Below are positions 33,678 to 63,554 of a DNA stretch of 64,000 bases, one piece after another. Location of the stretch: NCBI GenBank assembly GCA_026706485.1, contig JAPOYR010000010.1:145798-209797 (forward strand). Direction: 5' to 3'. The position numbers and the translations under genes are program-made. The stretch's first letter is position 1. Each line of letters opens with the position of its first letter. The DNA is from Chloroflexota bacterium. GTDB taxonomy: Bacteria > Chloroflexota > UBA11872. A model generated the notes under the pieces. The model searched no databases, was not told the DNA's origin, and saw only the letters and a list, made by a program, of their open reading frames with translations.

Positions 33678-33808
33678 CGGGAGCGCATCCGCCCGGCGCC
33701 CCAAGCTTCACGCGCGTCCGAACCGGCGTCAACCGGGGCCGCTTCGGGTATAGTGCGGCTCGCTGGCTTGGCGCGGGCGGGACCAGCCCCTACGTGAGCG
33801 AGCACCAC

Positions 33809-43095: not shown

Positions 43096-43105
43096 GGGCG
43101 ACTCG

Positions 43106-44077
43106 TCACGAGGTTTCGCGCAGCGCGCGCCACACGAGCTCCTGGGTGTCGAGGATGTCGTTGCGGCCCATCGCGTCGGCCAACGCCTCGGCGTCGATCG
43201 CGTCGAGCACGCGCAACAGGTAGTTGGTGTTGGACACGAACTGCTGGGCGCTGCGGATGGGCTCCTCGCGCGTCCAGACCACGTCCATGCCCAGGTAGTA
43301 CGGATAGTCGGCCTCGCGCAGCCAGTGCAGCATCTCCAGCGACTCCCACAGGTGGCTGCTGGCGAAGATGGTCGACAGGTCCTGCGGCAGCTGCGTGTCG
43401 TTGAGGTGCACGTGATAGAGCAAGCCGCGTCGGGCAGCCTCCCAGGCCGCTTGCGCCGCGTTCTCGCCGCTCATGAAGGTGTGGCTTACCTCCAGCTGCG
43501 CGCCGAGGTTGGGGAGGTTCAGCTCGCCGATGATCTCCAGGGTCTTGCTCATCGAGCCCACCGTCGCCCAGCCGCGCGGCAGGTAGGGCCGAAACTCGAG
43601 CGCCACCTTCAGGTCGCCGGCGGCCTCGCAGATCTCGCGCAGGGCGTCCAGCGTGCGCTCGCGCGCCGCGCGAAAGTCTTGCTGAAACGGGTAGTCGGCC
43701 CCGTCCATGGGCGTGAACACATAGACGCCCAGGCCGTCGAGCGCGCGCGCCACCTCGACGGCGTGCAGGCACATGTCGATGGCCTCGCGCCGCTCGGCCG
43801 CATCCGGTGAGGTATAGGCGGCCCAGGGGAACGAGCCGCGAATGTAGGGCTCGCCGTGGTGAATCATGGAGCATTGCAGCCCGCGGTCGTCGAGCCGCTG
43901 CTTCACCTGGTGCGCGTTGTCCAGCGTGACGCAGGTGCCGCTGAAGAACTCGATGCCCGCCAGGTCGGGAATCCGGTCGACGGCGCGGAAGGCCTCGTCG
44001 ATCTGGTCCACCGATGGACCGTCGACCATCCCCAGATGGTGATACAGACCCACGGAGTATCGCGGCGCCCAGTCCAT
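43106..44077 (-). CDS. sugar phosphate isomerase/epimerase (xylose-isomerase-like TIM barrel, more divergent)
   Basis: 323-aa ORF from ATG 44077, with GGAG 8 nt upstream. The longer ORF-track call to 45091 runs antisense through the enolase-family gene and is rejected. Confidence 0.65.
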   Translation of the reverse strand: MDWAPRYSVGLYHHLGMVDGPSVDQIDEAFRAVDRIPDLAGIEFFSGTCVTLDNAHQVKQRLDDRGLQCSMIHHGEPYIRGSFPWAAYTSPDAAERREAIDMCLHAVEVARALDGLGVYVFTPMDGADYPFQQDFRAARERTLDALREICEAAGDLKVALEFRPYLPRGWATVGSMSKTLEIIGELNLPNLGAQLEVSHTFMSGENAAQAAWEAARRGLLYHVHLNDTQLPQDLSTIFASSHLWESLEMLHWLREADYPYYLGMDVVWTREEPIRSAQQFVSNTNYLLRVLDAIDAEALADAMGRNDILDTQELVWRALRETS

Positions 44078-44088
44078 ATCCGCTGCTC

Positions 44089-45249
44089 CTAGTAGTAGCC
44101 GAAGCCGCCGTCGGCCTTCGCCGGCACGGGGCGCCGCCACGATTGGTAGGGGTGCTGCTCCACGAGTGCCTCGTTGAGCGTCACGCCCCAGCCCGGACCC
44201 TGCGGCAGTTTGACATAGCCGTCCTCGATCTCGATGCCGCCGTGCAGAAAGCTGTGGCGCAGCGCGCTTGCCTGGGCTCGCGGCCCCACGGTCTGCGGCG
44301 ACTCCATGATGAGGAAATTGGGCGTCGCCGCGCCGAAATGCGCCGTGGCCACGGACGATAGCCCGCCAAACGGATTGTGCGGCGCCAGCGACAGCATGTG
44401 CGCCTCGGCCAGCGCCGCGATCTTGCGAATCTCGGTCATGCCGCCGCAAAGCAGGATGTCGGGCTGCAGCAGGTCGGCGCCCTGCGCCTCGATCAGCGCC
44501 TGGAACTCGTGCTTGCCGTACAGGCTTTCGCCGGTCGCCACGGGCAGATTCATCGCCCGCCGCGCCTCGGCCATCACCGTGTGGCTGCCGGGCCGGATCG
44601 GCTCCTCGATGAACATCGGCCGGAAGGGCTCGATGGCCCGGGCCAACTCGGCAGCCTTCGCCGGCTCCTCCAGTTTGGCGTGGAAGTCGACGCCGATTTC
44701 CGCGGAATCGCCGACCGCCGCGCGCACGGCCTCCACGCGCTCCGTCACCAGCCGGATGGCCTGTTGCCAGGGCAGGCGGTCGTCCTCCGGCGAATAGGGG
44801 AAGAGCTTGAACGCCGTGAATCCGTGGTCGCTCGCCATGGCCTTGGCTTCCTCGGCCATGTCCGCCGGATCGCCGGTCACTACGTCGAAGTAGACCCACA
44901 CGCGGTCGCGGTAGGGGCCGCCGAGCAGCTGATAGACCGGCTGATCGGCCAGCTTGCCCGCCAGGTCCCACAGCGCCAGGTCGATGCCGCTGATGGCCGC
45001 CCAGCCCACCGCGCCCGCCGGAAAGCGCAACCCGCGGTAGCAGAGGTGCCAGAGTCGCTCGCGGCGCGTGGCGTCCTGCCCCACCAGCCACTCGCCGAGA
45101 TAGCGCACCGTCTCGGCCACCGCGAGGTCCGGACCGGCGGCGTACGCCTCACCGAGGCCCACCAACCCCGACTCCGTCGTGATCGTGACGTAGTTCGCGT
45201 TGTGGTGCGTGTCCGAGGCCGTGCGCACCTCGACACTTTGGATGCGCAC
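44089..45249 (-). CDS. enolase-superfamily dehydratase (mandelate racemase/muconate lactonizing enzyme family; sugar-acid dehydratase-like)
   Basis: MR/MLE N-terminal capping domain plus barrel metal ligands (D...E...D pattern around VDFHAKLE / IEEP). 386 aa. Confidence 0.8.
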   Translation of the reverse strand: MRIQSVEVRTASDTHHNANYVTITTESGLVGLGEAYAAGPDLAVAETVRYLGEWLVGQDATRRERLWHLCYRGLRFPAGAVGWAAISGIDLALWDLAGKLADQPVYQLLGGPYRDRVWVYFDVVTGDPADMAEEAKAMASDHGFTAFKLFPYSPEDDRLPWQQAIRLVTERVEAVRAAVGDSAEIGVDFHAKLEEPAKAAELARAIEPFRPMFIEEPIRPGSHTVMAEARRAMNLPVATGESLYGKHEFQALIEAQGADLLQPDILLCGGMTEIRKIAALAEAHMLSLAPHNPFGGLSSVATAHFGAATPNFLIMESPQTVGPRAQASALRHSFLHGGIEIEDGYVKLPQGPGWGVTLNEALVEQHPYQSWRRPVPAKADGGFGYY

Positions 45250-45747: not shown

Positions 45748-47403
45748 TTGCCGAGGGCCCACTTCATTCGGTGGAGTCCCGATGACTCGGCCGTGTTCTT
45801 CAACCAAGGCAGCAATCTCTACCGAGTTTCGACCGACGGCACTGCGCCGCTCCGGATCGTTCCGGACCGCAAGTTGCGCCTGGAGGTCGGGCCAATGACC
45901 GCATTTGATGTCTCGCCCGATGGGACGCAGGTTGTCTATTCCAGCTGCGCTTTGCCCATGCAGCCCTGGATCGAACACGGTCCGTCGATCACTCGCGAGA
46001 CCGACCCCGAGGGCAACGAGATCGTCGTGATCAGTGAGTGGAGGGATGGTCATCCCCCTTATCCATCCACCTATGAGCTCGCGCGCATAAACATCGACGG
46101 TACGGAGTCGGAGCGGTTGACCGACAACGGGTCCTACGACAATTTCCCAGCATGGTCTCCCGACGGCACTCGAATTGCCTTTGTATCCAAGTCCGGGTTG
46201 TACGTCTTAGCTGCTGACGGCGCGCGGGTTCTGCCTCACGAGGTCCAGGCAGTCGTATCGGTCCAACAACCGCGACTGCCGGTGGAGTTGGAGGTGGTGG
46301 CTTTGCATCCGCCCGCGTGGTCTCCGGACGGCGCGCGTCTCGCCTTCGTGGGCTGGGGGCTTCCCACACAACCGACAGAACCCGTGGCAGCTAAATTTGA
46401 TATCTACACAGTAGGCGCGGACGGCGCAAACCTGCAGCGGCTAACAGGCACGGTGAGTGAACCCTCGTGGTCGCCGGACGGGCAGCGCATCGCCTTTGCC
46501 AAACCCGACGGCGACGACGTGGCGCTCTATACCATTTCCGCCGACGGCTCGGACCTCAAGCGGGTCACGACCATCACGGGCTGGCACCCGCAGTATGGGG
46601 AGCCGGATCCGGCGCGCGCCTGGATTGAGAACGTTGCATGGTCACCCGACGGCTCGAAGATCCTCTACACCTGCGGTTGGATCTGCGTGGTCAGCGTGGA
46701 CGGCAAGCCAGTCAATGACACGCCACTACGCGGAATCATCGCCGCCTGGTCTCCGGACGGCTCGCGCATCGCGGTGGCGGGAGTATTGCGCGATGTTCGC
46801 AGCATGGCCCCTGACGGCAGTGACGTGCGCAGCCTGCCGATTCCAGGTGCCACGGCCACGACCATCGGTCGTGCGGCCCCCAGCGGTCCAGGGTCGGGTC
46901 CGTGCACGGCGGGATTCGTCGTGGCGGCTCCCGCGGCGAACCCCGGGTTGGTGCAGGACTGCGAGACATTGCTGGAAGTGCTACCCGCGCTGTTTGGGCA
47001 GGGGCTCGATCGCTGGCTCCGAGAGTCGCCAATAGAGATATGGCCGGGCATCAGAGTCACCGGCACGCCCCCGAGGGTAACGGCGTTGACGCTTTTGGGG
47101 CATGAGCTGGACGGGACCATACCCGTCGAACTTGGGGCACTGACCCACTTACAGACTCTGGACCTTTCCTTCAACCAGCTCACCGGCCCAATCCCGGCTG
47201 AACTGGCGAAGCTGACTCGGCTTTTGAATCTGGACCTGTCCTGGAACGAACTCAGCGGACCGATTCCAGCAGAGATGGGCCACCTAGCCGACCTTGAACT
47301 GCTTTGGCTTGAGGGCAACCCGCTGACGGGCTGCATCCCGACAACTCTACGGAGCATCCCGGAAAATGACCTTCCGGGCCTCGGTCTGCCGGATTGCGAG
47401 TAA
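45748..47403 (+). CDS. PD40 (TolB-like) beta-propeller protein with C-terminal plant-type leucine-rich repeats, probably frameshifted from its signal peptide
   Basis: Repeated WSPDG..IAF PD40 blades (AWSPDGTRIAFV, AWSPDGARLAFV, SWSPDGQRIAFA, AWSPDGSKILYT, AWSPDGSRIAVA), followed by LxxLxLSxNxLTGPIPxEL LRRs. The in-frame region upstream of TTG 45748 is open back to 45574. Confidence 0.7.
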   Translation: MPRAHFIRWSPDDSAVFFNQGSNLYRVSTDGTAPLRIVPDRKLRLEVGPMTAFDVSPDGTQVVYSSCALPMQPWIEHGPSITRETDPEGNEIVVISEWRDGHPPYPSTYELARINIDGTESERLTDNGSYDNFPAWSPDGTRIAFVSKSGLYVLAADGARVLPHEVQAVVSVQQPRLPVELEVVALHPPAWSPDGARLAFVGWGLPTQPTEPVAAKFDIYTVGADGANLQRLTGTVSEPSWSPDGQRIAFAKPDGDDVALYTISADGSDLKRVTTITGWHPQYGEPDPARAWIENVAWSPDGSKILYTCGWICVVSVDGKPVNDTPLRGIIAAWSPDGSRIAVAGVLRDVRSMAPDGSDVRSLPIPGATATTIGRAAPSGPGSGPCTAGFVVAAPAANPGLVQDCETLLEVLPALFGQGLDRWLRESPIEIWPGIRVTGTPPRVTALTLLGHELDGTIPVELGALTHLQTLDLSFNQLTGPIPAELAKLTRLLNLDLSWNELSGPIPAEMGHLADLELLWLEGNPLTGCIPTTLRSIPENDLPGLGLPDCE

Positions 47404-47477: not shown

Positions 47478-48575
47478 TTAGCCCGCCGACGCTCCGTTCG
47501 CGGCCATGGGCAGGGCGCCGCCCTTGGCCTCGATGTCATCCCAGAAGTGGCAGGACACGAAGTGGCCGTCACCGACGTCTCTGAGCTCCGGCTCTTCCGT
47601 CGCGCAGCGATCTTCCGCCCACGGGCACCGCGGGTGGAAGCGACAGCCTGAGGGCGGGTTCACCGGACTCGGCACGTCGCCGGTGAGGATGATGCGTTCG
47701 CGCTTGGCTTCCAGGTCCGGATCCGGCACCGGCACCGCTGACAGCAGACATCGCGTGTACGGATGCAGCGGGCGCAGATAGAACTGCTCGCTGGGCGCCA
47801 TCTCGACGATTTGGCCGAGGTACATCACCGCGATGCGGTGGCTGATCTGCCGCACGACCTTGAAGTCGTGGGAGATGAACAGGTAGGCCACGCCCAGCTG
47901 CTGCTGCAGGTCCAGCAGCAGGTTCATGATCTGCGCCTGGATCGACACGTCCAGCGCGGACACCGGCTCGTCGCAGACGATGAACGACGGCTGCACCGCC
48001 AGCGCGCGGGCGAAGGCAATGCGCTGACGCTGTCCGCCGGAGAACTCGTGCGGGTAGCGGCTCGAGAAGCGCGGATCGAGCCCCACCAATTCCAGCAGCT
48101 CGCGCACGCGCTGGCGACGCTCGTCGCGGCTCTCGTAGAGATCGTGCACCTGCAGCGGCTCTTCGATGATCCGCCCGACCGACATCCGCGGGTTCAGCGA
48201 GCCGTACGGGTCTTGGAAGATCATCTGCATCTTCCGCCGCGCGCGCCGCTGGTCGTCGCGCGAGAGCTGGACGAGGTCGTTGCCCTCGAAGATCACCTCG
48301 CCCGCCGTCGGCGGCTCGAGCTGCATGATCGTATTGCCGGTGGTGGTCTTGCCGCACCCGGACTCGCCGACCAGGCCCAGGGTCTCGCCCGCGTTCAGCT
48401 CGAAGCTGATGCCGTCAACCGCCCGCACCAGCCCGGACTGGCGGCGAATGATGAATCCGCGCATCACGGGGAAGTATTTGGTGAGCCCGTTGACCGTCAG
48501 CAGCGTTTCGCCATTGGCGGAGCCGTTGCGGCTCGAAGCGCTCGTCATCGTCTCGCCGGCCCTCGCGTCGCTCAT
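47478..48575 (-). CDS. ABC transporter ATP-binding protein, OppF/DppF type (with oligopeptide-ABC C-terminal extension)
   Basis: Walker [10 protein letters not shown], signature FSGGQRQR, and a C-terminal HPYTRCLL...GCRFHPRCP region. 365 aa. Confidence 0.85.
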
Positions 48576-49636
48576 CGCAACTCACCCGTATCCACGTCCA
48601 CCCAGCAGCGGAGCGACCGGCCGTCGTCGATCGTCTCCACGGGCGGCATTTCCTCTATGCACTTGTCCTTCACGAACCGGCAGCGCGGCGCGAATGGGCA
48701 CCCGACCGGGAGATTGGTCATGTCCGGCGGCGCGCCAGGGATGGCGCTCAGCCGGTCGCCGCGTGCCGCGGAGATGCTGGGCATGGATTCCAGCAGGCCA
48801 ATCGTGTACGGGTGTTTCGGCGTATAGAAGATGTCACGGCCCGATGCGCGTTCGACGATGTACCCGCCGTACATCACCACGATCTCCTGGCAGAACCCGG
48901 CGACCAGCGCCAGGTCGTGCGTGATCAGGATGGCGGCCATGCCCAGCTCTTCGCGCAGGCTCGAAATGAGCTCGATAACCTGCGCTTGAATCGTCACGTC
49001 CAGCGCCGTCGTCGGCTCGTCGGCGATGAGCAATTGCGGCTGACAAGAGATCGCCATCGCAATCATGGCCCGCTGCTGCATGCCACCCGAGAGCTGGTGC
49101 GGATAGTCGTTGGCGCGCTCGGCGGGCGAGGGAATTCCCACCCGATCCAGAAGCTCGACGGTGTGCGCGCGCGCCTCGTCCTTGCTCACGCCCAGGTGCA
49201 GCCGCTGCGCCTCGTCGATCTGGCGACCGACCGTCAGCACCGGATTGAGTGAGCTCATCGGGTCCTGGAAGATCATGGAGATCTTCCCGCCGCGAATCCC
49301 CCGCATCTCGTTGGGCGGAATCTGCAGCAGGGAGACGCGGCCGGCGCGCGTCTCAATGATCTCCTCGGGATCGATGTCCATCACGTTGGTGTCGCCGAAC
49401 ATGACCTCGCCACCGGTGATTTGACCGGCGGGCTGAGGAATCAGCCGCAGCAGGGCCAGCGAGCTGACGCTCTTGCCGCTGCCCGACTCGCCCACGATGC
49501 CGAGCGAGCCGCCCGCCGCAAGCTCGTAGGCGATGCCGTTGACCGCGCGAACGATGCCCTCGTCCGTCTTGAATTGGACGGCGAGATCCTTGACCTCGAG
49601 CAAGTGGCCGTTGTCGCTCATGCCGTTCTCGCTCAT
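48572..49636 (-). CDS. ABC transporter ATP-binding protein, OppD/DppD type (with oligopeptide-ABC C-terminal extension)
   Basis: Walker [10 protein letters not shown], signature LSGGMQQR, and C-terminal KHPYTIGLL...[10 protein letters not shown]. The ATG overlaps the hyuB stop (ATGA), and the stop overlaps the oppF-type start. Confidence 0.85.
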
Positions 49637-51681
49637 GTCGCCTGCTCAATCACTTGGTCCGCATGCCTCGGCAGCCAGTAGTCGTGATACCGATCATCGC
49701 ACTCCACGGAGCAGAAGCGCATCCCGCCGGCGCTCACCCACACGTCGCGCGGGACCACCTGGCCGCATAGCTGGCAATTCGTGACGCTAGTTTGCCACCA
49801 ATCGCCCTTGTGCTCCTCCCAGTGCCCGCCAGTCTCGGACCGGGGCGCGACAGCGACGGGCTCGCGCGTTTCGTCGGTGACGGTCGGCACCGCGGGAGCC
49901 GGCACATCGGCGCGGAGCCTCGCCGTCTCGTCGGCGTCGATCGTCAGCGTTCCGTTGAGCCGCTCCAAGGCGACGCCGTAGATCTCGCGCGCGGCCGTTT
50001 CCGACACGAATCCCTCCAAGACATCCCGGCGCACGGCTTCCGCGGCGCGTGTCCTCGGGTCGCCGTAGCCTCCCCCGCCGGGACTCGCGAGCATAACCTG
50101 ATCGCCCTCTTTCAGCACAATGTTGGCCACGCGCGAGTTGCTGGCCGTGCCGTACTCCTCGCGGAAGGTCACGAACGTGTCTTCCCCGGCGCGCTTCACG
50201 AGCAGCGCCGATCGCTGCCCATCCTCGCCGCCAAAGAGGCCCCAGGCGCCCGACACCATGCGGTCGAACAGCGCCGACACGGTGATCTCGGGCGCCCGCA
50301 CCTCGAGGATCCGCTCCGAGCCAAGCCCGCCCCGCTGCGCCCCGGCGCCGCCGGAGTCCTGCCGCAGGCGATAGGACCGCTCGAGGAATGGATAGCGCGT
50401 CTCGAAGATCTCCACCGGCGTCGACGGGCAGTTGCCGTTGGGGATCACCTGGTTGCTGTTGCCGTCGGCGTTGGCGCGCCCACCCCAGCCCACGCCGTCG
50501 AAGTGGTAGTGCACGTAGTAGCGGTCGGTGTCCGGGTGCGTGCCGCCGAAGAGGAAGTTGCAGGAGGTGCCGCCGGTGTCCGCGGAGACCCGGTCCGGCA
50601 CGGCCTTGGAGAGCGCGCCGATCACAATGCCCCACACGCGCGGGTGCGTCTCGGTGTTGCCGCCAACGCAAGGCCCGGGATGGACGACGTTGGTGAGCGT
50701 GCCCGGCGTGGCAATCACCGTGATGGGCCGATAGGCGCCGTCGTTGTGGGGCACGTTGTTGTCGGCAAAGTGGAACACGGCGTTGTAGGTGCCCGAGGCC
50801 GTCACGCCGTAGGTGCAGTTCAGCACGTGCTCCGCCTGCGGATCGCTCTCACTGAAGTCGGCGACCAGACTTCCGTCGGAAACGACAAGCCGCAGCCGAA
50901 TCCAGTCGTGCAAGGGCACCTCGCGGGCGTCCTCCATGTGGCCCTCGAAGGTGTACTCGCCGTCGGGAATGGCGCGAATCTCGTCCCGCATCCACCGCTC
51001 GGCATAGTCGAGCAGCTCGTCGCTCACCTGGGTGATGCGCTCGACGCCGTAGGCGTCCAGCAGCTCGTGGGTGCGCTGCTCGGCCACGTTCAACGACGCC
51101 ATCATGGCGTGCAGGTCGCCCCACGTGTATCGCGGCGCGCGGTGGTTGGACATCATGATGCGCCACACGTCTTCGTTGTATTCGCCGCCGCGCATCAGCC
51201 ACACCGGCGGCAGGCGCAGGCCCTCCTGGTAGATCTCGGTGGCAGTGGCCGCGAACCCGCCGACGGCCAGGCCGCCGATCTCAACCAGGTGCGCGATGTT
51301 CGAGACGTAGCCGAAGATTTCGCCGTCGTAGAACACGGGCTTGATGACCACGTGCTCCGGCATGTGCACGCCGCCGCGATAGGGATCGTTGTGCACGATG
51401 ATGTCGCCTTCGCGGACGTTCTCCTCGCCGATTTCGGCGATGAGCCACTTGACCACGAAGCGGATCGCGCCCACCTGCGCGGGGCAGAACTCGGTTTGCG
51501 CGAGCATGCGCCCGTGGCGGTCGAAGAGGACGCACGAAAAGTCGCGGCTCTCGCTGAAGATCGGCGAGTAGGCCGTGCGCATCATCGTGGTGCCCATCTC
51601 GCGGCAAATGCCGACGAGGCGGTTGTAGACCACGTTGAGCGTGACCAGATCGACGCTGGATGGGGCGCTGGACGTTGTCAT
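49633..51681 (-). CDS. hydantoinase B/oxoprolinase-family protein with C-terminal Cys4 zinc-ribbon-like extension
   Basis: HyuB core (NDPYRGG..., DFSCVLFD) over ~600 aa, then a ~70-aa tail containing CQLCGQ...CSVEC. ATG 51681 with GGGAG upstream was chosen, because the ORF-track start 51750 overlaps hyuA. Confidence 0.8.
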   Translation of the reverse strand: MTTSSAPSSVDLVTLNVVYNRLVGICREMGTTMMRTAYSPIFSESRDFSCVLFDRHGRMLAQTEFCPAQVGAIRFVVKWLIAEIGEENVREGDIIVHNDPYRGGVHMPEHVVIKPVFYDGEIFGYVSNIAHLVEIGGLAVGGFAATATEIYQEGLRLPPVWLMRGGEYNEDVWRIMMSNHRAPRYTWGDLHAMMASLNVAEQRTHELLDAYGVERITQVSDELLDYAERWMRDEIRAIPDGEYTFEGHMEDAREVPLHDWIRLRLVVSDGSLVADFSESDPQAEHVLNCTYGVTASGTYNAVFHFADNNVPHNDGAYRPITVIATPGTLTNVVHPGPCVGGNTETHPRVWGIVIGALSKAVPDRVSADTGGTSCNFLFGGTHPDTDRYYVHYHFDGVGWGGRANADGNSNQVIPNGNCPSTPVEIFETRYPFLERSYRLRQDSGGAGAQRGGLGSERILEVRAPEITVSALFDRMVSGAWGLFGGEDGQRSALLVKRAGEDTFVTFREEYGTASNSRVANIVLKEGDQVMLASPGGGGYGDPRTRAAEAVRRDVLEGFVSETAAREIYGVALERLNGTLTIDADETARLRADVPAPAVPTVTDETREPVAVAPRSETGGHWEEHKGDWWQTSVTNCQLCGQVVPRDVWVSAGGMRFCSVECDDRYHDYWLPRHADQVIEQAT

Positions 51682-51709
51682 CGATGGCGTCTCCCTACAC
51701 ACCTGGCGT

Positions 51710-53767
51710 TCATGCGGACCCCTCGGTCCACTCGAGCACGGCCGTGCCATGCGGGCTGACGGTCAGCAACTGACCGGGGTGGACGACGGTCGTTGAGTCG
51801 AGCTCTTCGATGATGGCCGGCCCGGTGATGCGATCGGCGGGCGAAAGGTCTTCGCGGGAGTAGACGGGGCAATCGACGGGACCGTCCGACGCGAACCAGA
51901 CCTGGCGCGTTCCCGCCGGTTCGGCGGGGGATCCCTCCGGCAACACCGGCAATTCCGGCTTGGCGGTGTCCCCAAACACGGTGACGTTGAACTGCACCAG
52001 CTCAATGATTTCGTCGGGGATGCGGTAGCCGTAGGTTGCCTCGTAGTGCGTCTCAAACGCCGCGAGCAACTGGACCAGCGATTCAGCCGTGACTTCGCCG
52101 CCGGGGATCGGAATCTCCTCTTCATAGTTCTGGCCGAGGTAGCGCATGTTCACCGACCGCTGAATCTGCGGCGTGCCCGCGAATCCCTCGTGCTCCAGAT
52201 CGGCCGTGGCCTCCGCCACGAGCTCGTTGAGCCGCGCGTCGATGGACGGCGCGTCCAGTCGATCCGACCGCAGAATGTGCGTCCAGGTCTTGTCCACGCG
52301 CATGTCGGCCAGCAGCGTGCCGAACGCGGAGCAGAGGCCTGGATGCGGCGGAATCAGCACCCGCCGGGCACCGATCACCTTGGCGATGGCCGCCGCGTGC
52401 AGCGGGCCGGCGCCACCAAATGCCACCAGGCTGAACTGCCGCGGGTCCAGGCCGCGCCGCACGGTGAGCAGGCGCATGGCCTCCGCGATGTTCTCGACGG
52501 CGATATCCAGCACGGCCTGAGCGGTGGCCTCCGGACTGAGGCCGAGCGTGCCGCCAAGATCGGATAGGGCGCGGTGTGCGAGGTCGGCATTCAGCCGAAC
52601 CTCGCCGCCAAGGAAGTTTTCGGGATTGAGCCGGCCAAGCACCACGTTGGCGTCCGTGACCGTCGGCTCGGCGCCGCCCTGCGCGTAGCACACCGGGCCC
52701 GGCACGGCGCCGGCGCTCTGGGGCCCGGCCTGGAGCAATCCGCCGCGGTTGACCCAGGCAATGGACCCGCCACCGGCGCCCATGGTCGTCATCTCGATGA
52801 ACGGCGCCGCGACCGGCAGGCCGAATTCGATCTCCCACGCCGTGGTGTAGCCGATGGCTCCGTCGTCCACCACGCCGACATCCGTGCTGGTGCCGCCCAT
52901 GTCGAAGCTGATGATGTTGTCGTCGTTGAGCGATTCGGCGTAGTACTTCGCCGCGATGATCCCGCCCGGCAGGCCGGATAGCACCGTCTGCGCCGGCCGG
53001 TCGGCCGCGGATTCCGCCAGCATCTGGCCGCCGTTGGACTTCATCACCGCCCACGAGCGAGTGTTCCCCCACGCCGCAAGTCCGTCGTCCAACGCGTGGA
53101 TGAACCCTTGCAAGAGCGGCCGGATGTAGGCATCCGCGATGGTCGTGCTGGCCCGGTCGTACTCCCGCCAGATCGGCGCGACCTCGTGCGACAGCGAAAT
53201 CGACAGCTCGGGGAACTCGCCGGCCAGGTACTCGCGGATCATGCGCTCGTGGTCGGGCTTGACGTACGAGAACAAGCAATTGACCGCCACCGCCACAGCC
53301 CCGTTGGTGCGTTCGTCCAGCCGCTCGCGCAGCATGTCGCCGAGACTGCCGAGGGCTTCCGGCGTCAACGGGTCCACGACGGCGCCCATGTAGTCGAGCC
53401 GCTCCGCCACGCCCAGGCAATCGCGCCGCGTGACCAAGGGCTCCGGTCGCTCCCAGTCGAGGTCGTAGTGGAATTTGCGATCGACCCGCTGCAGGAACGG
53501 CACGTCCTCGAATCCGGACGTCGTCACATAGAGCACCCGGGCGCCCTTGCGCTGCAGCAGCGCGTTCACGCCGACCGTCGTGCCAAGCACGAAATAGCTG
53601 ACCGCGTCGGCGGGGATTCCGCTGTGCTCGATCGCGTCGAATATCGCGTCGCTGGGGGAGTCGGGCGTCGAAGGCCGCTTGACGACCTGCGCTTCCCCCG
53701 ATTCCTCATCGAGGGCGACGAAGTCGGTGAAGGTCCCGCCCGTGTCGATACCGATGCGAATGGCCAA
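51710..53767 (-). CDS. hydantoinase A/oxoprolinase-family protein
   Basis: N-terminal IGIDTGGTFTDFV ASKHA-fold motif and full-length HyuA pattern. 685 aa. Confidence 0.85.
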   Translation of the reverse strand: MAIRIGIDTGGTFTDFVALDEESGEAQVVKRPSTPDSPSDAIFDAIEHSGIPADAVSYFVLGTTVGVNALLQRKGARVLYVTTSGFEDVPFLQRVDRKFHYDLDWERPEPLVTRRDCLGVAERLDYMGAVVDPLTPEALGSLGDMLRERLDERTNGAVAVAVNCLFSYVKPDHERMIREYLAGEFPELSISLSHEVAPIWREYDRASTTIADAYIRPLLQGFIHALDDGLAAWGNTRSWAVMKSNGGQMLAESAADRPAQTVLSGLPGGIIAAKYYAESLNDDNIISFDMGGTSTDVGVVDDGAIGYTTAWEIEFGLPVAAPFIEMTTMGAGGGSIAWVNRGGLLQAGPQSAGAVPGPVCYAQGGAEPTVTDANVVLGRLNPENFLGGEVRLNADLAHRALSDLGGTLGLSPEATAQAVLDIAVENIAEAMRLLTVRRGLDPRQFSLVAFGGAGPLHAAAIAKVIGARRVLIPPHPGLCSAFGTLLADMRVDKTWTHILRSDRLDAPSIDARLNELVAEATADLEHEGFAGTPQIQRSVNMRYLGQNYEEEIPIPGGEVTAESLVQLLAAFETHYEATYGYRIPDEIIELVQFNVTVFGDTAKPELPVLPEGSPAEPAGTRQVWFASDGPVDCPVYSREDLSPADRITGPAIIEELDSTTVVHPGQLLTVSPHGTAVLEWTEGSA

Positions 53768-53779
53768 TGCGCGCCTGCC

Positions 53780-54754
53780 TCAGATCACCCGATGTTGGGG
53801 CTCGTCGCCGAGCAGGATACGACGCACCTCGGCCACTGCCGCAAGTTCGCAGTCCAACGCCGCGGTTTCCGACTTCCAGGCAATGTGGGGCGTGACGATG
53901 AGGCTGGACTCGCGAAGGAGTGGATGGTCGAAGTCCGGCGGCTCGGTCTCGAACACGTCCAGACCAGCCCCGCCCAGGGCGCCAGAGGCCAGCGCACGCT
54001 GCAACGTATGGTGATCGATGATGCCGCCGCGAGACACGTTGATCAGCAGCGCGCCGCGGCGCATGCGAGCGAACTCCGGCGCGCCGAGCATCTCCCGCGT
54101 GTCGTCGGTGAGCGGCACGTGCACCGTGAGCGCATCCACCGACTGCAACAGATCATCGAGATCGCTCGCCACGCGCATCTCCGCACCCGACGGCGGCGTC
54201 AGCCGATCCGCCGGAAGGAAGGGGTCGAAGACCACCAGCCGCATGCCGAACCCGGCGGCCAGCGCCGCCGTTGCCCGGCCGATGCGCCCGTAGCCCAACA
54301 CGCCAAGCGTCGAACCGCGCAGACGACGCGGTTGAAACGTGTCGTCGTAGGTCCGCCACAGGTGCCGCTCGCGCACGTCGGCATCCGAATCCGTGACACA
54401 GCGCGCCAGCGCCAGCAGCAGCGCGATGGCGTGCTCGGCGACTTCCGACGTGAATGCGTCGGGCGTATGCGCCACCACGACGCCGCGCTCCTTCGCCGCG
54501 ATCAAGTCGACTTTCTCCGTGCCCACGCCGTACACCACGACGCCGCGCAGCTTCGGCGCGTGATCCAGCAGATCGCCATCCACCGGCGTCAGCTCGGTCA
54601 ACATCACGTCAGCCTCCGCCACGGCGTCGTAAAGCTCGTCGCGGGGCGGCGCGCCCAGGAACACCATGTCCGCGATGTCGGCCAGCACCTCCACTTCGCG
54701 ATCGTGATGCGGCAGCCCTGCGCCCGCGGAGACCACGCGAAACCGACGGCTCAT
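53780..54754 (-). CDS. D-isomer-specific 2-hydroxyacid dehydrogenase (NAD-binding)
   Basis: GxGxxG (LGVLGYGRIGRA) and the catalytic R/E/H pattern. It sits 12 nt upstream of hyuA on the same strand. Confidence 0.8.
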   Translation of the reverse strand: MSRRFRVVSAGAGLPHHDREVEVLADIADMVFLGAPPRDELYDAVAEADVMLTELTPVDGDLLDHAPKLRGVVVYGVGTEKVDLIAAKERGVVVAHTPDAFTSEVAEHAIALLLALARCVTDSDADVRERHLWRTYDDTFQPRRLRGSTLGVLGYGRIGRATAALAAGFGMRLVVFDPFLPADRLTPPSGAEMRVASDLDDLLQSVDALTVHVPLTDDTREMLGAPEFARMRRGALLINVSRGGIIDHHTLQRALASGALGGAGLDVFETEPPDFDHPLLRESSLIVTPHIAWKSETAALDCELAAVAEVRRILLGDEPQHRVI

Positions 54755-54791
54755 CGCGGGACGTCAACCACTCGGCTGCCGAACACCTGCC

Positions 54792-55769
54792 TCACGCGCT
54801 GGCAAACCGCTTGGGGAAGTACTGCGCGCAGTTCTGCTCCAGCCACTCGACGGTCAGCTTCATCCACAGCTGCGGGTCGTATTGCGGCAGGCAGCACGTC
54901 TCGATGCAATGGGGCAGGTAGTCGGGGTCCGGCGCGTTTTGCTGCAGGATCTCCATGATCTCGAGAACCTCCACGCTGCCGTAGCCGACCGGTGCGTGGA
55001 AAAACTTCGGCTCGCCGGTCGTGGTGATGGACTGCACCCGCATGTCCTTCAGATGCGTCATCACGGTGTAGGGCGCGGCCATGTGGGCGGCATCGACCTG
55101 GTCTTCAACGACCGAGTAGCTGTTGGCGAAGTCGTAGTTGATCCGCAGCCACGGCGACGCGACGCCCTCCACCACCTGCACGATCTCGCTGATCCGGTAG
55201 TCCATGTGGTTCTCGAAGGCGAGGACGATGCCGCACTTCTCGGCGTCGACCACCAGTTTCGACAGGTTGTCGATCATGCGGTCGATTTGCACGCCGATTG
55301 GCGTCTCGGTGCTGAAGTGCCCGAACCGCAGCCCCCCGTTGGGCATGGGCTGACCGGGAGGGCCGGGCGGGTCGGCGTTGACCATGGCGCTGGTTCGCAC
55401 GCCGCCGGCCTGCATCCACTCCAGGTGCATGGCGGCGCGCTCGTGAACCGGCGACCACTCGTCGCGGTCGACGGCCCAGGCGCCGTTGACGGAGCCAACC
55501 CACTCGATGCCGTTCTCGGCCAGCAGGCGACCATTAGCAGCGGCCGCCTCCTTGCCATCCAAGAGCGACGCCGCCGTATAGAGGTTGTCAAAACCCCACT
55601 CGCTGCAGCGTTCGATCCACCACTCCAGCGCCCCGTCCAGCTCCTCGGGCGGCTCGGTGGTGGTGCCATAGGGATATTCCAAGCCGCGAAAGCCGTACTC
55701 GGGTTGATCGATGCGCAACCCCGGGTAGGACACCCAGCGATAGGCCGCCTGTGAAAGGCCGAGTCTCAT
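54792..55769 (-). CDS. sugar phosphate isomerase/epimerase (xylose-isomerase-like TIM barrel), paralog 4
   Basis: From the internal Met MRLGLSQAAYRW, matching the N-termini of paralogs at 41159 and 42163 (FENHMDYRISE, MTHLKDMRVQ). Confidence 0.7.
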   Translation of the reverse strand: MRLGLSQAAYRWVSYPGLRIDQPEYGFRGLEYPYGTTTEPPEELDGALEWWIERCSEWGFDNLYTAASLLDGKEAAAANGRLLAENGIEWVGSVNGAWAVDRDEWSPVHERAAMHLEWMQAGGVRTSAMVNADPPGPPGQPMPNGGLRFGHFSTETPIGVQIDRMIDNLSKLVVDAEKCGIVLAFENHMDYRISEIVQVVEGVASPWLRINYDFANSYSVVEDQVDAAHMAAPYTVMTHLKDMRVQSITTTGEPKFFHAPVGYGSVEVLEIMEILQQNAPDPDYLPHCIETCCLPQYDPQLWMKLTVEWLEQNCAQYFPKRFASA

Positions 55770-57280: not shown

Positions 57281-58267
57281 CTACTCCGGCTCGAACAACG
57301 ACTTGGGCGGCTCGCCCCGAAGCACCCGCGCGACCTCCGCCGCGGCCTCGCGGCGCAGGATGCGAATCGACGTCCGCGAATAAAAGCCGCTATGCGGCGT
57401 GATGATGACGTTGGGCGCCTCCCGCAGCGGTGAGTCCATCGGCAGCGGCTCTTCTTCCATCACGTCCAGGCCCGCGCCGGCGATCCGCCCGTCCTTGAGC
57501 GCCCGCGCCAGCGCGGCGTTGTCGACGACCGCCCCGCGGGCCGTGTTGATCAAGAACACGCTGGGCTTCATCAAGTCGATCTCGGCCTCACCGATCAGGT
57601 GGTGCGTCTGCGCCCGCAACGGCGTGTGCACCGACACGAAGTCGGATTGCCGCAAGAGATCGTCCAGCGGCACACGCTCGACTTGCGACGCCTCGAATGC
57701 GGAATCCGGCGCACGCGGCGAGTGCCCGATCGCCCGCAATCCAAAGGCCCGCGCCCGCGCCGCCACGGCCTGCGCCGTCTGCCCCAGTCCGATCAGCCCA
57801 AGCGTCTGCCCCTCGACGCGCTCCATCCGCTCGGGAACACCGCCGCTGGCGTCCCAGACTCCGGCGCGCACGTCGTCGTTGTAGACCACGATGTGGCGGG
57901 CCAGGGCTAGCAGAAAACCCATCGTGTGGTCCGCGACCTCGCCGACCTGGTAGTCGCGCACGTTGCAGACCACGATGCCCTTGGCCGTCGCCGCCGCCAC
58001 GTCGATCGGGTCCATGCCGGTGCCGTAGCGCACGATCACCTTGCAGCGCTCCAGGGCATCCACGACGCGTGCCGTGATTGGCGCGTACTGTTCGAGCAAA
58101 CCGTCGGCGTCGGCCACCTTCTCGATCAGCGCGTCTTCCGTGAAGCATTGCTCCACGACCAGCTCGGCGCCGATGGGATCGAGCTCGGCCTGCTCGATCA
58201 CCGGCGGCATCTCGAAATCGCAGTCGGTGATCACGACCCGGAAGCGGGGCTCGGTCATTGGCGCCAT
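57281..58267 (-). CDS. D-isomer-specific 2-hydroxyacid dehydrogenase (second copy)
   Basis: GLIGLGQTAQAVA NAD-binding motif and the 2-HADH catalytic domain. 328 aa. Confidence 0.8.
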   Translation of the reverse strand: MAPMTEPRFRVVITDCDFEMPPVIEQAELDPIGAELVVEQCFTEDALIEKVADADGLLEQYAPITARVVDALERCKVIVRYGTGMDPIDVAAATAKGIVVCNVRDYQVGEVADHTMGFLLALARHIVVYNDDVRAGVWDASGGVPERMERVEGQTLGLIGLGQTAQAVAARARAFGLRAIGHSPRAPDSAFEASQVERVPLDDLLRQSDFVSVHTPLRAQTHHLIGEAEIDLMKPSVFLINTARGAVVDNAALARALKDGRIAGAGLDVMEEEPLPMDSPLREAPNVIITPHSGFYSRTSIRILRREAAAEVARVLRGEPPKSLFEPE

Positions 58268-58316: not shown

Positions 58317-58985
58317 CTACAGAATGCCGTATTCCTTGAAGACCTCGCCCACGTCGCGACCGGTCGCCAGAATCTCGCGCACGTTGGATTCACCCCGTCC
58401 CTTGGCCTCGGCGCGGTCCAGCACTTCGGCCGCGGCCTCGCCCGGAACTACCACGACGCCCATGTCGTCGCCGACGATCACGTCGCCGTATTCAACCCGC
58501 GCCCCGGCGCAGTCGATGGGCTGGCCCCACTCGATGCCCTCGCAACGGCCCTCGGAGTCAACCGCACTTTGGCCGACCGCGAACACCGGAAAGTCGATCT
58601 CCTCGATCTCATGCACGTCGCGAGTCAAGCCGTCGATCACGCAGCCCACCGCGCCCCGCGTCTGCGCCGAGGTGCTCAGCAGGCCGCCCCACACGCCCGA
58701 CTCGTAGTGGCCCGTCGTGGTGATGACCAGCACGTCGTTGGGCCGCATGGCGCGAAACGCCTCGAACAGCACCTCGTACGGTTCGTCCGGCGGCCGGTAG
58801 ACCGCCGTCTGCAAAAGCGGCAGCGCCCGGCCCACGATGCGGGCGCCCGGATACATCGGGCGCACGTCGTGCCGCATGGCTTGCACCGGCACGCCCATGC
58901 GGTCGAGGCTGTCGGCGATCAGGGCGGAGTGCAGCGCCTGGAATCGCTGCCGCGTGGCATCGTCGAACTCGGGCGCCTGGCTCAT
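58317..58985 (-). CDS. RraA-family protein (RNase E regulator RraA / 4-hydroxy-4-methyl-2-oxoglutarate aldolase-like)
   Basis: RraA/MenG-like fold motifs (GDVLVITTTG, VIDGLTRD). Its start overlaps the hyuB2 stop by 4 bp. Confidence 0.7.
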   Translation of the reverse strand: MSQAPEFDDATRQRFQALHSALIADSLDRMGVPVQAMRHDVRPMYPGARIVGRALPLLQTAVYRPPDEPYEVLFEAFRAMRPNDVLVITTTGHYESGVWGGLLSTSAQTRGAVGCVIDGLTRDVHEIEEIDFPVFAVGQSAVDSEGRCEGIEWGQPIDCAGARVEYGDVIVGDDMGVVVVPGEAAAEVLDRAEAKGRGESNVREILATGRDVGEVFKEYGIL

Positions 58986-60784
58986 TCCGCGGCTCCATTG
59001 GCAGTGCGGCGCTGGTCCGTTTCGACGAGCTCGGCGCGGCCAGCCGCCACGTTGACGGCCACACCGTACATTTCACGGGCATCCTCGGGTTCGAGCAGCA
59101 AATCCCGTACGTCTTCGAGCACCAGCGCCGGGTCACGCTCACGCGGATCGCCGTAGCCGCCTCCGCCGGGCGTGCGCAACAGGATCTGGTCGCCGATGTC
59201 AAGCACGACGTTCGAGAACTTTCCATCGGAGATGGTGTCGAACATCTCGCGAGCCGTCCGCCACTCGGTTTCCCCGGCGCGTCGGAAAAGCAGCGCCGTC
59301 GTGCCGCCCTCCGCCCCACCGTGCAATCCCCACGGCCGGTTGGACGTGCGGTTGAGATGCGCGCTCACGGTGATCGGCAAGAGGCAGGTCCAGGTGCGTT
59401 GCACGCCATGGCCGCCGCGATAGGCCCCCGCGCCCGCGCCGCCCTCGGCAATCGAGTACTCGTCCAATCGCACCGGGTAGCGCGTCTCCCACACTTCGCA
59501 CGGCGCGTTGAGGCAGTTGCCGTTCTTCACGATCTGAGCGTCGTTGCCGTCGGCGTCGCGCCGGCCGCCCCAGCCCATGCCCTCGTGATGCAGGATGACG
59601 AAGGGTTCGCCCGTGTCGATGTTCGTGCCGTAGAACCCCAGCAGGCCGCAGGTGCCGCCGTCCGCCGCCGAGCTGCGATCGCTGGCCTGTGCGAAGGCGG
59701 CCAAAAGGATGTCCACCGTCGTGGGATAGGTATCGGAGTTCCCGCCCACGCACGAGCCGGGATAGTTCACATTCACGATTGACCCCGGCGGCGCCACGAT
59801 GGCAATGGGCCGGTAGGCGCCGTGATTCCACGGAATGGCGTTGTCGATCATGTGGAAGATGCCGGCATAGGTCGCCGACGCCGTGGTGCCGAACGACTGG
59901 TTGATCGCCCCGGCCGCCTGCGGGTCCGACCCGGTGTAGTCGACGATCACCTCGTCGCCGCGGATCACCACCGTGGCCCGGATTTTCCAGGGACGATCGG
60001 GAATCACGCCGTCGTCCTCCAGGAAGCCCTCGGCGGTGTAGGCGCCATCCGGCAGCCGGTCGAGCGCCTGGCGCATCAGCACTTCCGACACATCCTTGAT
60101 CTGGCCCGAAAGCTCGCGAAATCGCTCGACGCCAAGCTTCTCCACCAGGCCCACGATGCGGCGTTCGGCCAGGTAGGTCGAGCCCACCATCGCCATCAGG
60201 TCGCCGCGCGAGACCTTGGGCGTGCGCACGTTCGACGTGATGATGGCGAAGATATCTTCGACCGGCTCGTCGTCCTGGTAGATCTTGATCGGCGGCAGCC
60301 GCAGGCCCTCCTGGAAGATGTTGCGCGTGTCGCCAAAGGCCGCCGGCACCATGCCGCCGATATCCGTCATGTGCGCGATGTTGGCCGCGTAGGCCACCAC
60401 CGCGCCCTCGTAGAAGCAGGGCTTCAACGTCATGAACTCGGGCAGGTGACAGCCGCCGCGATAGGGGTCGTTGTGGAGGATCACGTCGCCCGGGTGCATG
60501 TTGTCCGGCCCGACCTCTTTGATCGCCCACTCGACGGTGTGCACGATGGCGCCGATGTGCGCCGGGCAGAAGTCGCCCTGCGCGATCATCTCGCCCTGTG
60601 CGTCGAAGACGACGCACGAGAAGTCGCGCGCCTCGTTGAACATGGTCGAGTAGGAGGTGCGCAGCATGGCTACGCCCATCTCCTCGCAGATGCCCACCAG
60701 GCTGTTGCGTGTGACCTCCAGCTCCACCGGATCGTCGATGTGCAGGTCGGCGACGCTGCGTTTCGGATCGGTATCTCGGGCCAT
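58982..60784 (-). CDS. hydantoinase B/oxoprolinase-family protein (second copy, no zinc-ribbon tail, no adjacent HyuA)
   Basis: 600 aa, clearly paralogous to 49633..51681 (for example DFSCVVFD, HNDPYRGGCHLPE). Confidence 0.8.
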   Translation of the reverse strand: MARDTDPKRSVADLHIDDPVELEVTRNSLVGICEEMGVAMLRTSYSTMFNEARDFSCVVFDAQGEMIAQGDFCPAHIGAIVHTVEWAIKEVGPDNMHPGDVILHNDPYRGGCHLPEFMTLKPCFYEGAVVAYAANIAHMTDIGGMVPAAFGDTRNIFQEGLRLPPIKIYQDDEPVEDIFAIITSNVRTPKVSRGDLMAMVGSTYLAERRIVGLVEKLGVERFRELSGQIKDVSEVLMRQALDRLPDGAYTAEGFLEDDGVIPDRPWKIRATVVIRGDEVIVDYTGSDPQAAGAINQSFGTTASATYAGIFHMIDNAIPWNHGAYRPIAIVAPPGSIVNVNYPGSCVGGNSDTYPTTVDILLAAFAQASDRSSAADGGTCGLLGFYGTNIDTGEPFVILHHEGMGWGGRRDADGNDAQIVKNGNCLNAPCEVWETRYPVRLDEYSIAEGGAGAGAYRGGHGVQRTWTCLLPITVSAHLNRTSNRPWGLHGGAEGGTTALLFRRAGETEWRTAREMFDTISDGKFSNVVLDIGDQILLRTPGGGGYGDPRERDPALVLEDVRDLLLEPEDAREMYGVAVNVAAGRAELVETDQRRTANGAAE

Positions 60785-63330: not shown

Positions 63331-63554
63331 GGGAGAACGCGACGGTGAGCAGGTCCGGTGGCCCGCGCTGCGTGCAGCGTGGGACGGCCGCGGCTGAATC
63401 TCCCAGGCTGCGCGCAGCCTGGGCCACCGGGCAGGGCTGCACGTACAAGACCCATTTCCGAGGAGGGGCGCCCCGTGTAAGCGCCCTTCCTTTCGCCGTC
63501 CCGGCCCGCTGGTAGGCTCGCCGCAGCACCGCGCGTCGTCCATCGGAGGACTCC

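Follow-up and report, generated by a model that had tools for sequence, protein, structure and literature searches.

Hydantoinase-linked OppDF ATPases of uncultured Chloroflexota as probable energy subunits of a split Opp/Dpp-type importer

Why should two ATPases of the oligopeptide-transporter type be encoded in overlap with an ATP-dependent hydantoinase, in a stretch of DNA that contains no gene for a transporter membrane protein? This question is raised by a six-gene run on the minus strand of a 64-kb stretch of Chloroflexota DNA, which was analyzed as a whole and is referred to here as the window. The genes of the run (Table 1) are separated by gaps of 37, 12, and 28 bp, followed by 4-bp ATGA overlaps at the hyuB/oppD and oppD/oppF junctions. 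An earlier reading of the DNA, made from the letters alone (the sequence-only reading), had described the same run with these gaps and overlaps; the open reading frames and junctions agreed with it, its gene calls were correct, and each of the six assignments was confirmed by Pfam. For the first gene, the 325-aa form starting at position 55769 is the version called in relatives, with 325-aa orthologues in loci L003–L005. The 2-hydroxyacid dehydrogenase had only NCBIfam best matches below the cut-off, and the place of its gene before hyuA is kept in L003–L005, in L010, and in a contig from JGI. The third-position GC content of the six genes (0.84–0.90) fits real genes in a genome with 67% GC. 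Scans for promoters and terminators gave no signal above the shuffled expectation.

Table 1. Features of the window, numbered from its first nucleotide
Feature	Position	Strand	Basis of assignment
TIM-barrel protein, xylose-isomerase-like (AP_endonuc_2), first of the six genes	54792–55769	−	Pfam PF01261, E = 7e−17
2-Hydroxyacid dehydrogenase, D-isomer-specific	53780–54754	−	Pfam PF02826 and PF00389
HyuA (hydantoinase/oxoprolinase A; ATP-binding subunit of ATP-dependent lactamase-type enzyme)	51710–53767	−	Pfam Hydant_A_N, Hydantoinase_A, Hydant_A_C
HyuB (hydantoinase B subunit, 682 aa)	49633–51681	−	Pfam PF02538 (Hydantoinase_B), E = 1e−171
FCS-type zinc-finger module of HyuB	about 49636–49850		
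OppD/DppD-type ABC ATPase	48572–49636	−	ABC_tran and oligo_HPY
OppF/DppF-type ABC ATPase	47478–48575	−	ABC_tran and oligo_HPY
PD40/LRR gene, inserted between oppF and MR_MLE	45748–47403	+ (opposite strand)	
MR_MLE, enolase superfamily	44089–45249	−	Pfam
Three AP_endonuc_2 genes	about 43106–44077, 42163–43095, 41159–42166	−	Pfam
BNR/sortilin-like protein	39123–41075		
ABC ATPase fragment	63516–63998		

Both ATPases were said by the sequence-only reading to carry an oligopeptide-type C-terminal extension, and the Pfam domain oligo_HPY (PF08352) was indeed found in each, with E-values of 5.5e−20 for OppD and 1.7e−18 for OppF. The Walker A, Q-loop, signature, Walker B/D-loop, and H-loop motifs and the C-terminal four-Cys motif are intact in both proteins. 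When compared with solved structures, OppD scored 421 bits against Mycobacterium tuberculosis OppD (8J5Q), 312 bits against Escherichia coli OppD (8Z21), and 305 bits against 8Z1V, and only 101 bits against PhnK, a soluble ABC ATPase of the C-P lyase system. OppF clears the cut-off of the NCBIfam model NF008453, “dipeptide ABC transporter ATP-binding protein” (425.7 versus 408 bits), and the top NCBIfam match of OppD is the OppD subfamily model, at a score below the cut-off of that model. Judging from these domains and scores, OppD and OppF most likely form the nucleotide-binding pair of a conventional ABC importer of the Opp/Dpp family (peptide/opine/nickel type). That they are the decaying remains of a transporter operon that broke apart, as the absence of nearby membrane genes in the window's subclade might suggest, is scarcely credible: their reading frames are intact, with a third-position GC content of 0.87–0.90, all catalytic motifs are preserved, and the conservation of the block in related genomes, with identities of 60–99% and preserved overlaps over 32 species, already contradicts decay.

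The membrane partners of such an importer are missing from the window, as the sequence-only reading had claimed. Pfam scans of approximately 47 of its open reading frames found no BPD_transp_1 or SBP_bac_5 domain, and a tblastn search with 11 queries from related genomes, representing Opp-type binding proteins, OppB, and OppC, gave no hit to the window with E ≤ 1e−3. Throughout the window's subclade, no membrane gene was found within about 8 kb of hyuAB-oppDF. The ABC ATPase fragment at the far edge of the window was considered as a possible beginning of the absent transporter; it shares only 35% identity with OppF, and because the window stops within it, it is unclassifiable.

We then turned to related genomes, in which the linkage proved to recur. 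The hyuA-hyuB-oppD-oppF block was found in 32 species-level Chloroflexota representatives, with identities of 60–99% and with the overlaps preserved, and the linkage is therefore real. At the far end of these relatives, OppD and OppF show 63–71% identity and HyuA and HyuB 63–73%; the two pairs have diverged equally fast, and nothing in this points to an altered function. In the JGI contig, the block forms part of a longer co-directional cluster in the order OppC, SBP_bac_5, OppB, two AP_endonuc_2 proteins, 2-Hacid_dh, HyuA, HyuB, OppD, OppF, and MR_MLE, and equivalent co-directional clusters occur in L010 and L082. Because none of these three full clusters contains an ATPase gene other than oppD and oppF, their permeases must use this OppDF pair. 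Other relatives are rearranged: in L009 and 15 further species representatives, oppB is located some 8.4 kb downstream of oppF and in the opposite orientation, accompanied in L009 by a binding protein gene, and in L025, oppC lies upstream. The sequence-only reading had named permease and binding protein genes in a rearranged relative as evidence against it, and such genes do occur near the block in relatives, in the full clusters as well as in L009 and the 15 other representatives; the linkage, on the other hand, is not unique to this genome. The sequence-only reading had called the coupling of hyuAB to transporter ATPases unexpected; an ancestral operon with catabolic genes between its membrane and ATPase genes accounts for it.

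The same comparison showed that the cluster extends beyond the six genes. On the 3′ side of oppF, past the oppositely oriented PD40/LRR gene, the minus strand resumes with MR_MLE and three AP_endonuc_2 genes. In L010, oppF, MR_MLE, and the three AP_endonuc_2 genes are contiguous and co-directional in the same order as in the window, and in L003–L005, the MR_MLE and AP_endonuc_2 genes likewise lie 3′ of oppF, past a variable spacer. On the basis of this shared order, the minus-strand genes at 41159–45249 are a continuation of the same ancestral cluster. A 651-aa protein without a Pfam match, encoded 3′ of oppF in L006–L008, was considered as a novel membrane partner and rejected because it is 46% identical to the BNR/sortilin-like protein of the window.

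For the missing membrane half, the sequence-only reading had left a choice: either the partners are encoded elsewhere, or the ATPases have taken on a soluble role. In the latter case, OppDF would be a part or a regulator of a HyuAB complex, much as PhnK and PhnL serve the C-P lyase core with no membrane partner, and PhnK, a detectable distant relative, shows that an ABC ATPase can be recruited in this way. Several features of the locus would suit this reading, namely, the invariance of the 4-bp hyuB/oppD and oppD/oppF overlaps in the clade, the persistence of the four-gene block in three different genomic contexts, and the lack of a membrane gene both in the 64 kb of the window and within about 8 kb of the block in the subclade. 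The hyuB/oppD overlap persists in every lineage, even where the membrane genes are distant, and such invariance would also be compatible with a direct functional link. However, oppC, binding protein, and oppB genes stand in the clusters of relatives without other ATPase genes, and the scores of OppD against bona fide OppD/DppD proteins are about four times that against PhnK. Furthermore, the enzyme needs no OppDF, given that HyuAB homologues with 50–58% identity occur without OppDF in Actinomycetota, as does the HyuAB pair of another Chloroflexota locus, L012. Finally, the same genomes contain ATPase-less Opp modules, conserved at 92–94% identity, which require an energizer. A soluble role is consequently very improbable; the cognate membrane genes in relatives argue against it, and these clusters, together with the distant module described below, favor the other branch of the choice, namely, that the partners are encoded elsewhere.

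A close relative with a long contig (2,070,653 bp; OppD and HyuB 86% and 93% identical to those of the window) indicates where the membrane genes may have gone. In this contig, hyuAB-oppDF lies at 568.5–589.5 kb, and an SBP-OppB-OppC module, L011, lies at 717.7–738.7 kb, about 145 kb away, with no ATPase gene within 10 kb. L011 is the closest match to the membrane genes of the full clusters (OppB 74–77%, OppC 71%, and binding protein 64–67% identity), whereas paralogous binding proteins share only 40–45% with the full-cluster binding protein. By these identities, the L011 module is orthologous to the full-cluster membrane genes. Its gene order, SBP-B-C, differs from the C-SBP-B order of the full clusters, and so the split was not a simple cut. 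A second ATPase-less module on the same 2.07-Mb contig, L012, joins another HyuAB pair to another Opp module and has no OppD/F match within 8–10 kb, and a third (L013/L014) was found in another lineage. A contig of 3,193,867 bp on record encodes close counterparts of the OppB proteins from both ATPase-less modules (94% and 92% identity), and L017, whose OppD is 99% identical to that of the window, is also on a contig of 3,193,867 bp. The distant module is thus seen in relatives with proteins 85–99% identical, not in the window's own genome.

We therefore consider it likely that OppDF are the energy subunits of a split Opp/Dpp-type importer, the membrane half of which is encoded elsewhere in the window's lineage. 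The six genes would represent the distal part of a catabolic cluster of uncultured Chloroflexota, whose ancestral order, kept in some relatives, was probably oppC, binding protein, oppB, TIM barrels, dehydrogenase, hyuA, hyuB, oppD, oppF, and more enzymes. The position of oppDF directly after hyuB would then reflect operon history and co-regulation, not an action on the enzyme. A rearrangement in the window's lineage would have parted the membrane half (binding protein, oppB, and oppC) from the enzyme/ATPase half, and the former would now lie about 145 kb away, as in the closest long contig. That OppDF pair physically with the products of the L011 module is suggested by the orthology and by the absence of adjacent ATPases, although these genomes may also encode further Opp-type ATPase pairs at a greater distance. 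According to this scheme, the binding protein would capture a substrate, probably one bearing a cyclic amide, which OppBC, energized by OppDF, would import; HyuAB would open the lactam ring at the expense of ATP, and the dehydrogenase, TIM-barrel, and enolase-type enzymes would process the ring-opened product. Judging by the neighboring enzymes, the substrate is probably not a plain peptide.

The presence, in the genome of a relative, of at least two Opp-type membrane modules without ATPase genes of their own makes it probable that the OppDF pair serves more than one importer. Taken to its extreme, this sharing would make the linkage a mere historical remnant, in which OppDF serve unrelated housekeeping Opp-type importers, several ATPase-less modules for different substrates, and are tied to HyuAB by co-transcription only. 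Such a remnant is rather unlikely. It would agree with the presence of at least two ATPase-less modules on one contig with divergent binding proteins (about 40% identity), with documented cases of shared ATPases, and with the observation that, among the matches listed, there are several OppB-type cluster representatives for a given contig size (e.g., 2070653, 3193867, and 3313960 bp) and OppD relatives only once each. Nevertheless, an orthologue of the full-cluster binding protein has been retained in the window's lineage, so that the original pairing of transporter and pathway probably persists, and the connection of another HyuAB pair with another Opp module in L012 suggests a functional theme that recurs rather than a coincidence. 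Moreover, the remnant overlaps with the split-importer explanation and differs from it in emphasis only. A more specific possibility, which is plausible but which we hold to be somewhat short of probable, is that a single OppDF pair inside a lactamase operon energizes several Opp-type importers that have no ATPases themselves, of which at least one (L012) has HyuAB-type genes of its own. If this is true, the multitask-ATPase principle, known from sugar importers and from the Listeria Ctp/Opp systems, would be extended to peptide-type importers in an uncultured phylum, and the expression of a shared motor would be tied to one particular pathway.

The enzyme itself belongs nearer to the hydrolase branch of its family than to the carboxylase branch. 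Against PDB entries, HyuA scored 422 bits with N-methylhydantoinase and 358 bits with the caprolactamase alpha subunit, compared with 304 and 230 bits with carboxylases (230 for acetone carboxylase beta); HyuB scored 287 bits with N-methylhydantoinase and 274 bits with the caprolactamase beta subunit, compared with 129 and 88 bits with carboxylases (88 for acetone carboxylase). Both subunits missed the 1000-bit cut-off of the caprolactamase NCBIfam equivalogs (HyuA, 495.8 bits; HyuB, 346.9 bits), and on these scores, they are not orthologues of caprolactamase or of another characterized enzyme. The C terminus of HyuB carries a fused FCS-type zinc-finger module (C-x2-C-G ... F-C-S-x2-C), which matches Pfam zf-FCS_1 weakly (E = 7e−4) and is present in all members of the clade. 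A role of the HyuB tail as a docking element for OppDF was rejected, because loci that lack OppDF encode the same module in a small ORF of its own downstream of hyuB; such loci are L059–L085 of Actinomycetota, L012, and a Sulfitobacter plasmid. The cluster also draws attention to a small zinc-finger partner of HyuB that has escaped annotation.

The locus is instructive mainly as a caution: transporter ATPase genes may look like enzyme-linked orphans in a single window and yet form the end of an importer operon that has been split, and a look at related genomes quickly resolves such cases. The locus also documents a conserved catabolic cluster of Chloroflexota, with the genes of an Opp-type importer on either side of those for an ATP-dependent lactamase and sugar-type enzymes, and the substrate of this pathway could be worth finding. 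It further offers a candidate for an OppDF pair that is shared between importers.

Among known systems, the Opp/Dpp importers (TC 3.A.1.5), such as M. tuberculosis OppABCD and E. coli OppABCDF and DppABCDF, are alike in having two different ATPases with ABC_tran and oligo_HPY domains and a four-Cys motif, in the high similarity of solved OppD/DppD proteins to the protein described here, and in the SBP_bac_5 and OppB/OppC proteins of the relatives' cluster. The present system differs in that catabolic genes lie between the membrane and ATPase genes and in that the membrane genes of the window's lineage are about 145 kb away. PhnK and PhnL, which are soluble, are similarly ABC ATPases in an enzyme operon and distant kin of the same group of transporter ATPases, but the similarity is weak (OppD, 101 versus 421 bits), and in the present case, relatives encode a cognate permease and binding protein. 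With the hydantoinase/oxoprolinase lactamases (N-methylhydantoinase, caprolactamase CapAB, and the HyuAB-like proteins of Ti plasmids), the window HyuAB shares the full HyuA/HyuB Pfam architecture and scores far above those with acetone/acetophenone carboxylases, as well as genes that often lie beside those for ABC importers of various families; it differs in falling below the caprolactamase cut-offs and in the zinc-finger tail fused to HyuB. On Ti plasmids, HyuA/B-like genes lie beside opine ABC transporters for lactam opines (PMC6733357); literature searches for agropinic-acid aga genes with a hydantoinase and for sponge Chloroflexi with a hydantoinase found nothing. Separately encoded and shared ATPases are already known: MsmX of Bacillus subtilis and MsmK of Streptococcus pneumoniae are orphan multitask ATPases (PMC7658222), and Listeria OppDF energize the ATPase-less Ctp module (bioRxiv 10.1101/2023.10.16.562582). 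Our case resembles these in that the ATPases are encoded apart from modules without an ATPase of their own and in that there is more than one such module per genome, here in a relative. However, MsmX is free-standing and Listeria OppDF belong to a complete opp operon, whereas here the ATPase pair, which would be shared in a similar way, lies inside a catabolic operon.

The six-gene minus-strand order proposed by the sequence-only reading, and the oligopeptide-type C-terminal extensions of both ATPases, were borne out by Pfam assignments; the claimed junctions were exact, with gaps of 37, 12, and 28 bp followed by two 4-bp overlaps, both ATGA. Third-position GC in these six ORFs (47478–55769) was 0.84–0.90, as in real genes, and the GC content of the window was 67%. 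That reading had also reported no permease or binding-protein gene in the window. This held: a Pfam scan of approximately 47 window ORFs returned no BPD_transp_1 permease or SBP_bac_5 binding protein, and tblastn with 11 Opp-type binding-protein, OppB, and OppC queries from related genomes gave no match in the window at E ≤1e−3. The cluster extends further than the reading had placed it, past oppF on the minus strand, to an enolase-superfamily gene and three further TIM-barrel genes.

Features of the extended cluster and of other genes in the window
Feature	Position	Strand	Basis
Xylose-isomerase-like TIM barrel (AP_endonuc_2)	54792–55769	minus	Pfam
D-2-hydroxyacid dehydrogenase	53780–54754	minus	Pfam
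HyuA (Hydant_A_N, Hydantoinase_A, Hydant_A_C)	51710–53767	minus	Pfam
HyuB (Hydantoinase_B)	49633–51681	minus	Pfam
Cys4 module of HyuB (residues ~610–682)	49636–49850	minus	
OppD-type ABC ATPase (ABC_tran, C-terminal oligo_HPY)	48572–49636	minus	Pfam
OppF-type ABC ATPase (ABC_tran, C-terminal oligo_HPY)	47478–48575	minus	Pfam
PD40/LRR gene, after oppF	45748–47403	plus	Pfam
Enolase-superfamily gene (MR_MLE)	44089–45249	minus	Pfam
Three further TIM-barrel genes	41159–44077	minus	Pfam
Second Hydantoinase_B gene (600 aa)	58982–60784	minus	
RraA-like aldolase/decarboxylase	58317–58985	minus	
2-Hydroxyacid dehydrogenase	57281–58267	minus	
827-aa ORF	31100–33583	plus	
MoxR-type AAA ATPase	33635–34756		
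ABC ATPase gene start (ABC_tran)	63516–63998	plus	

In the related locus L010, the enolase-type gene and three TIM barrels directly follow oppF, matching the window's order beyond the PD40/LRR gene. This opposite-strand gene encodes a PD40 beta-propeller with leucine-rich repeats, and the spacer in which it lies differs among close relatives: it holds an MFS transporter and an fn3 protein in L004, PD40/LRR gene fragments in L005, and no called gene in L003, and is absent altogether in L010. The site is apparently a hotspot for insertion and breaks up the ancestral cluster. Elsewhere in the window, the 827-aa ORF upstream of the MoxR-type gene had a gene-like third-position GC (0.78) and no Pfam match.

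OppD-type homologues were gathered and their contigs read for gene neighborhood, and one genome per species was scanned with a HyuB alignment, with loci annotated by tblastn. Representatives of 32 species, without exception uncultured Chloroflexota, had the hyuA-hyuB-oppD-oppF block, which answers in the affirmative whether the linkage recurs in other genomes. The window belongs to this group because the HyuB of one member (L015) is 99% identical to its own. L003–L005 (OppD 94% and 86% identical) carry the same island. Actinomycetota HyuB relatives (50–58% identity) have hyuA-hyuB without oppDF, which marks the block as a conserved trait of a single Chloroflexota clade, not a chance adjacency. 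In a lineage with 70% OppD identity (L006–L008), the block has other surroundings, with the TIM-barrel and dehydrogenase genes replaced by a creatininase-family amidohydrolase gene (4860–5711) directly before hyuA. Another gene of this family (L011, 16859–17596) is close to the binding-protein, OppB, and OppC module that lies far from the block in a close relative, and these genes hint at cyclic-amide substrates.

Both ATPases retain the Walker A, Q-loop, signature, Walker B/D-loop, H-loop, and C-terminal four-Cys motifs, and their divergence across relatives keeps pace with that of HyuA and HyuB. OppD scored 421 bits against Mycobacterium tuberculosis OppD (8J5Q), 312 against Escherichia coli OppD, 305 against E. 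coli DppD, and only 101 against PhnK, and OppF passed the NCBIfam dipeptide-transporter ATPase cut-off. The OppDs of the window (354 aa) and of the 94% relative have five additional N-terminal residues and an 18-residue insertion between Walker A and the Q-loop (residues ~85–105), both lacking in the remaining OppDs of the clade (331 aa).

On one strand of a relative's 375-kb JGI contig, genes for an OppC-type permease, SBP_bac_5, an OppB-type permease, two TIM barrels, a 2-hydroxyacid dehydrogenase, HyuA, HyuB, OppD, OppF, and MR_MLE were found in this order, and L010 and L082 have the same arrangement. Because none of these full clusters contains a further ATPase gene, OppDF must be the motor of their importer. 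In L009, a binding-protein gene and oppB lie ~8–9 kb downstream of oppF on the opposite strand, oppB has the same position in 15 further species representatives, and L025 has oppC upstream of the block; in the window's own subclade (L015–L024), no membrane gene was found within flanks of roughly 8 kb. On a 2,070,653-bp contig of a close relative (OppD 86%, HyuB 93%), the block is at 568.5–589.5 kb, and the L011 module (SBP_bac_5, OppB, and OppC, then an opposite-strand DegV gene) is at 717.7–738.7 kb, with ~145 kb between the oppF end and the binding-protein gene start and no tblastn match to OppD or OppF in the module locus. For all three proteins, this module matches the full-cluster membrane genes best (OppB 74–77%, OppC 71%, and binding protein 64–67%), whereas paralogous binding proteins share only 40–45% identity with those of the full clusters, which makes the module the orthologous set of partners.

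A second module on this contig (L012, 55–72 kb), again without ATPases, encodes in order OppC, two binding-protein paralogues, two opposite-strand genes, OppB, HyuA, a 600-aa HyuB, and a 64-aa zinc-finger protein. The 70%-identity lineage has an ATPase-less OppC, binding protein, and OppB module 778 kb from its block. ATPase genes are absent from all three membrane modules inspected. L017 (OppD 99% identical to that of the window) is on a contig of 3,193,867 bp, and a contig of this same length is recorded with OppBs that share 94% and 92% identity with those of the L011 and L012 modules; we infer that these are one contig. Among the cluster representatives listed, several OppB-type permeases occurred on contigs of one same size, and OppD relatives one per size. 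Such a pattern points to sharing of the OppDF pair between importers, without proving it. The ABC ATPase gene running off the window end is 35% identical to OppF over 161 residues.

Of the two alternatives offered by the sequence-only reading, membrane partners encoded elsewhere is thus supported by the full clusters and the distant orthologous module. Recruitment of OppDF to a soluble role is not supported because relatives hold membrane genes within the cluster, HyuAB occurs elsewhere without OppDF, and the ATPases resemble ordinary transporter subunits. The best-supported interpretation is a split Opp-family importer that feeds a catabolic pathway. The ancestral operon had the enzyme genes between the membrane and ATPase genes, and in the lineage of the window a rearrangement has separated off the membrane half. 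The OppDF pair would bind the distant OppBC, and probably the L012-type module as well. HyuAB would open a cyclic amide in the compound imported, after which the dehydrogenase, TIM-barrel, and enolase-type enzymes would process a moiety that is sugar-like or a hydroxy acid.

HyuA and HyuB are closest to N-methylhydantoinase and caprolactamase, with acetone and acetophenone carboxylases much further, and both fall below the NCBIfam caprolactamase equivalog cut-offs; judged by sequence, HyuAB is best described as a putative, uncharacterised ATP-dependent lactam hydrolase. The HyuB C-terminus has a conserved Cys4 module (C-x2-C-G-Q ... F-C-S-x2-C) that weakly matches Pfam zf-FCS_1 (E = 7e−4). The module is a separate 60–120-codon ORF just downstream of hyuB in Actinomycetota loci (L059–L085), in the relative's second HyuAB locus (L012, 13031–13225; 64 aa), and on a Sulfitobacter plasmid (L096, 10702–10896; 64 aa, with a hypothetical-protein annotation). 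It resembles a small third subunit of many HyuAB enzymes that has gone unannotated and that in the window is fused to HyuB. It is reminiscent of acetone carboxylase, whose gamma subunit binds zinc, and is independent of OppDF. The window's second Hydantoinase_B is 44% identical to the first, and its gene has no adjoining HyuA gene (tblastn found only one HyuA in the window) and is followed by the RraA-like and 2-hydroxyacid dehydrogenase genes. Seven more HyuB genes with no adjacent HyuA gene were found (L050–L056), and on a Neorhizobium plasmid (H23) a HyuB gene adjoins one annotated "oxaloacetate decarboxylase."

ATPase genes encoded apart from, and common to, several modules are well documented in sugar importers (MsmX and MsmK; PMC7658222), and within the Opp family the ATPase-less Ctp module of Listeria is energised by OppDF (10.1101/2023.10.16.562582). 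HyuAB-type genes commonly adjoin ABC importer genes on plasmids, and on Ti plasmids they are proposed to open lactam opines (PMC6733357). Both parts of this case, an Opp-type importer that is split and possibly shared and an uncharacterised lactamase of the HyuAB type, are therefore of kinds already known, and the finding is an ordinary one.
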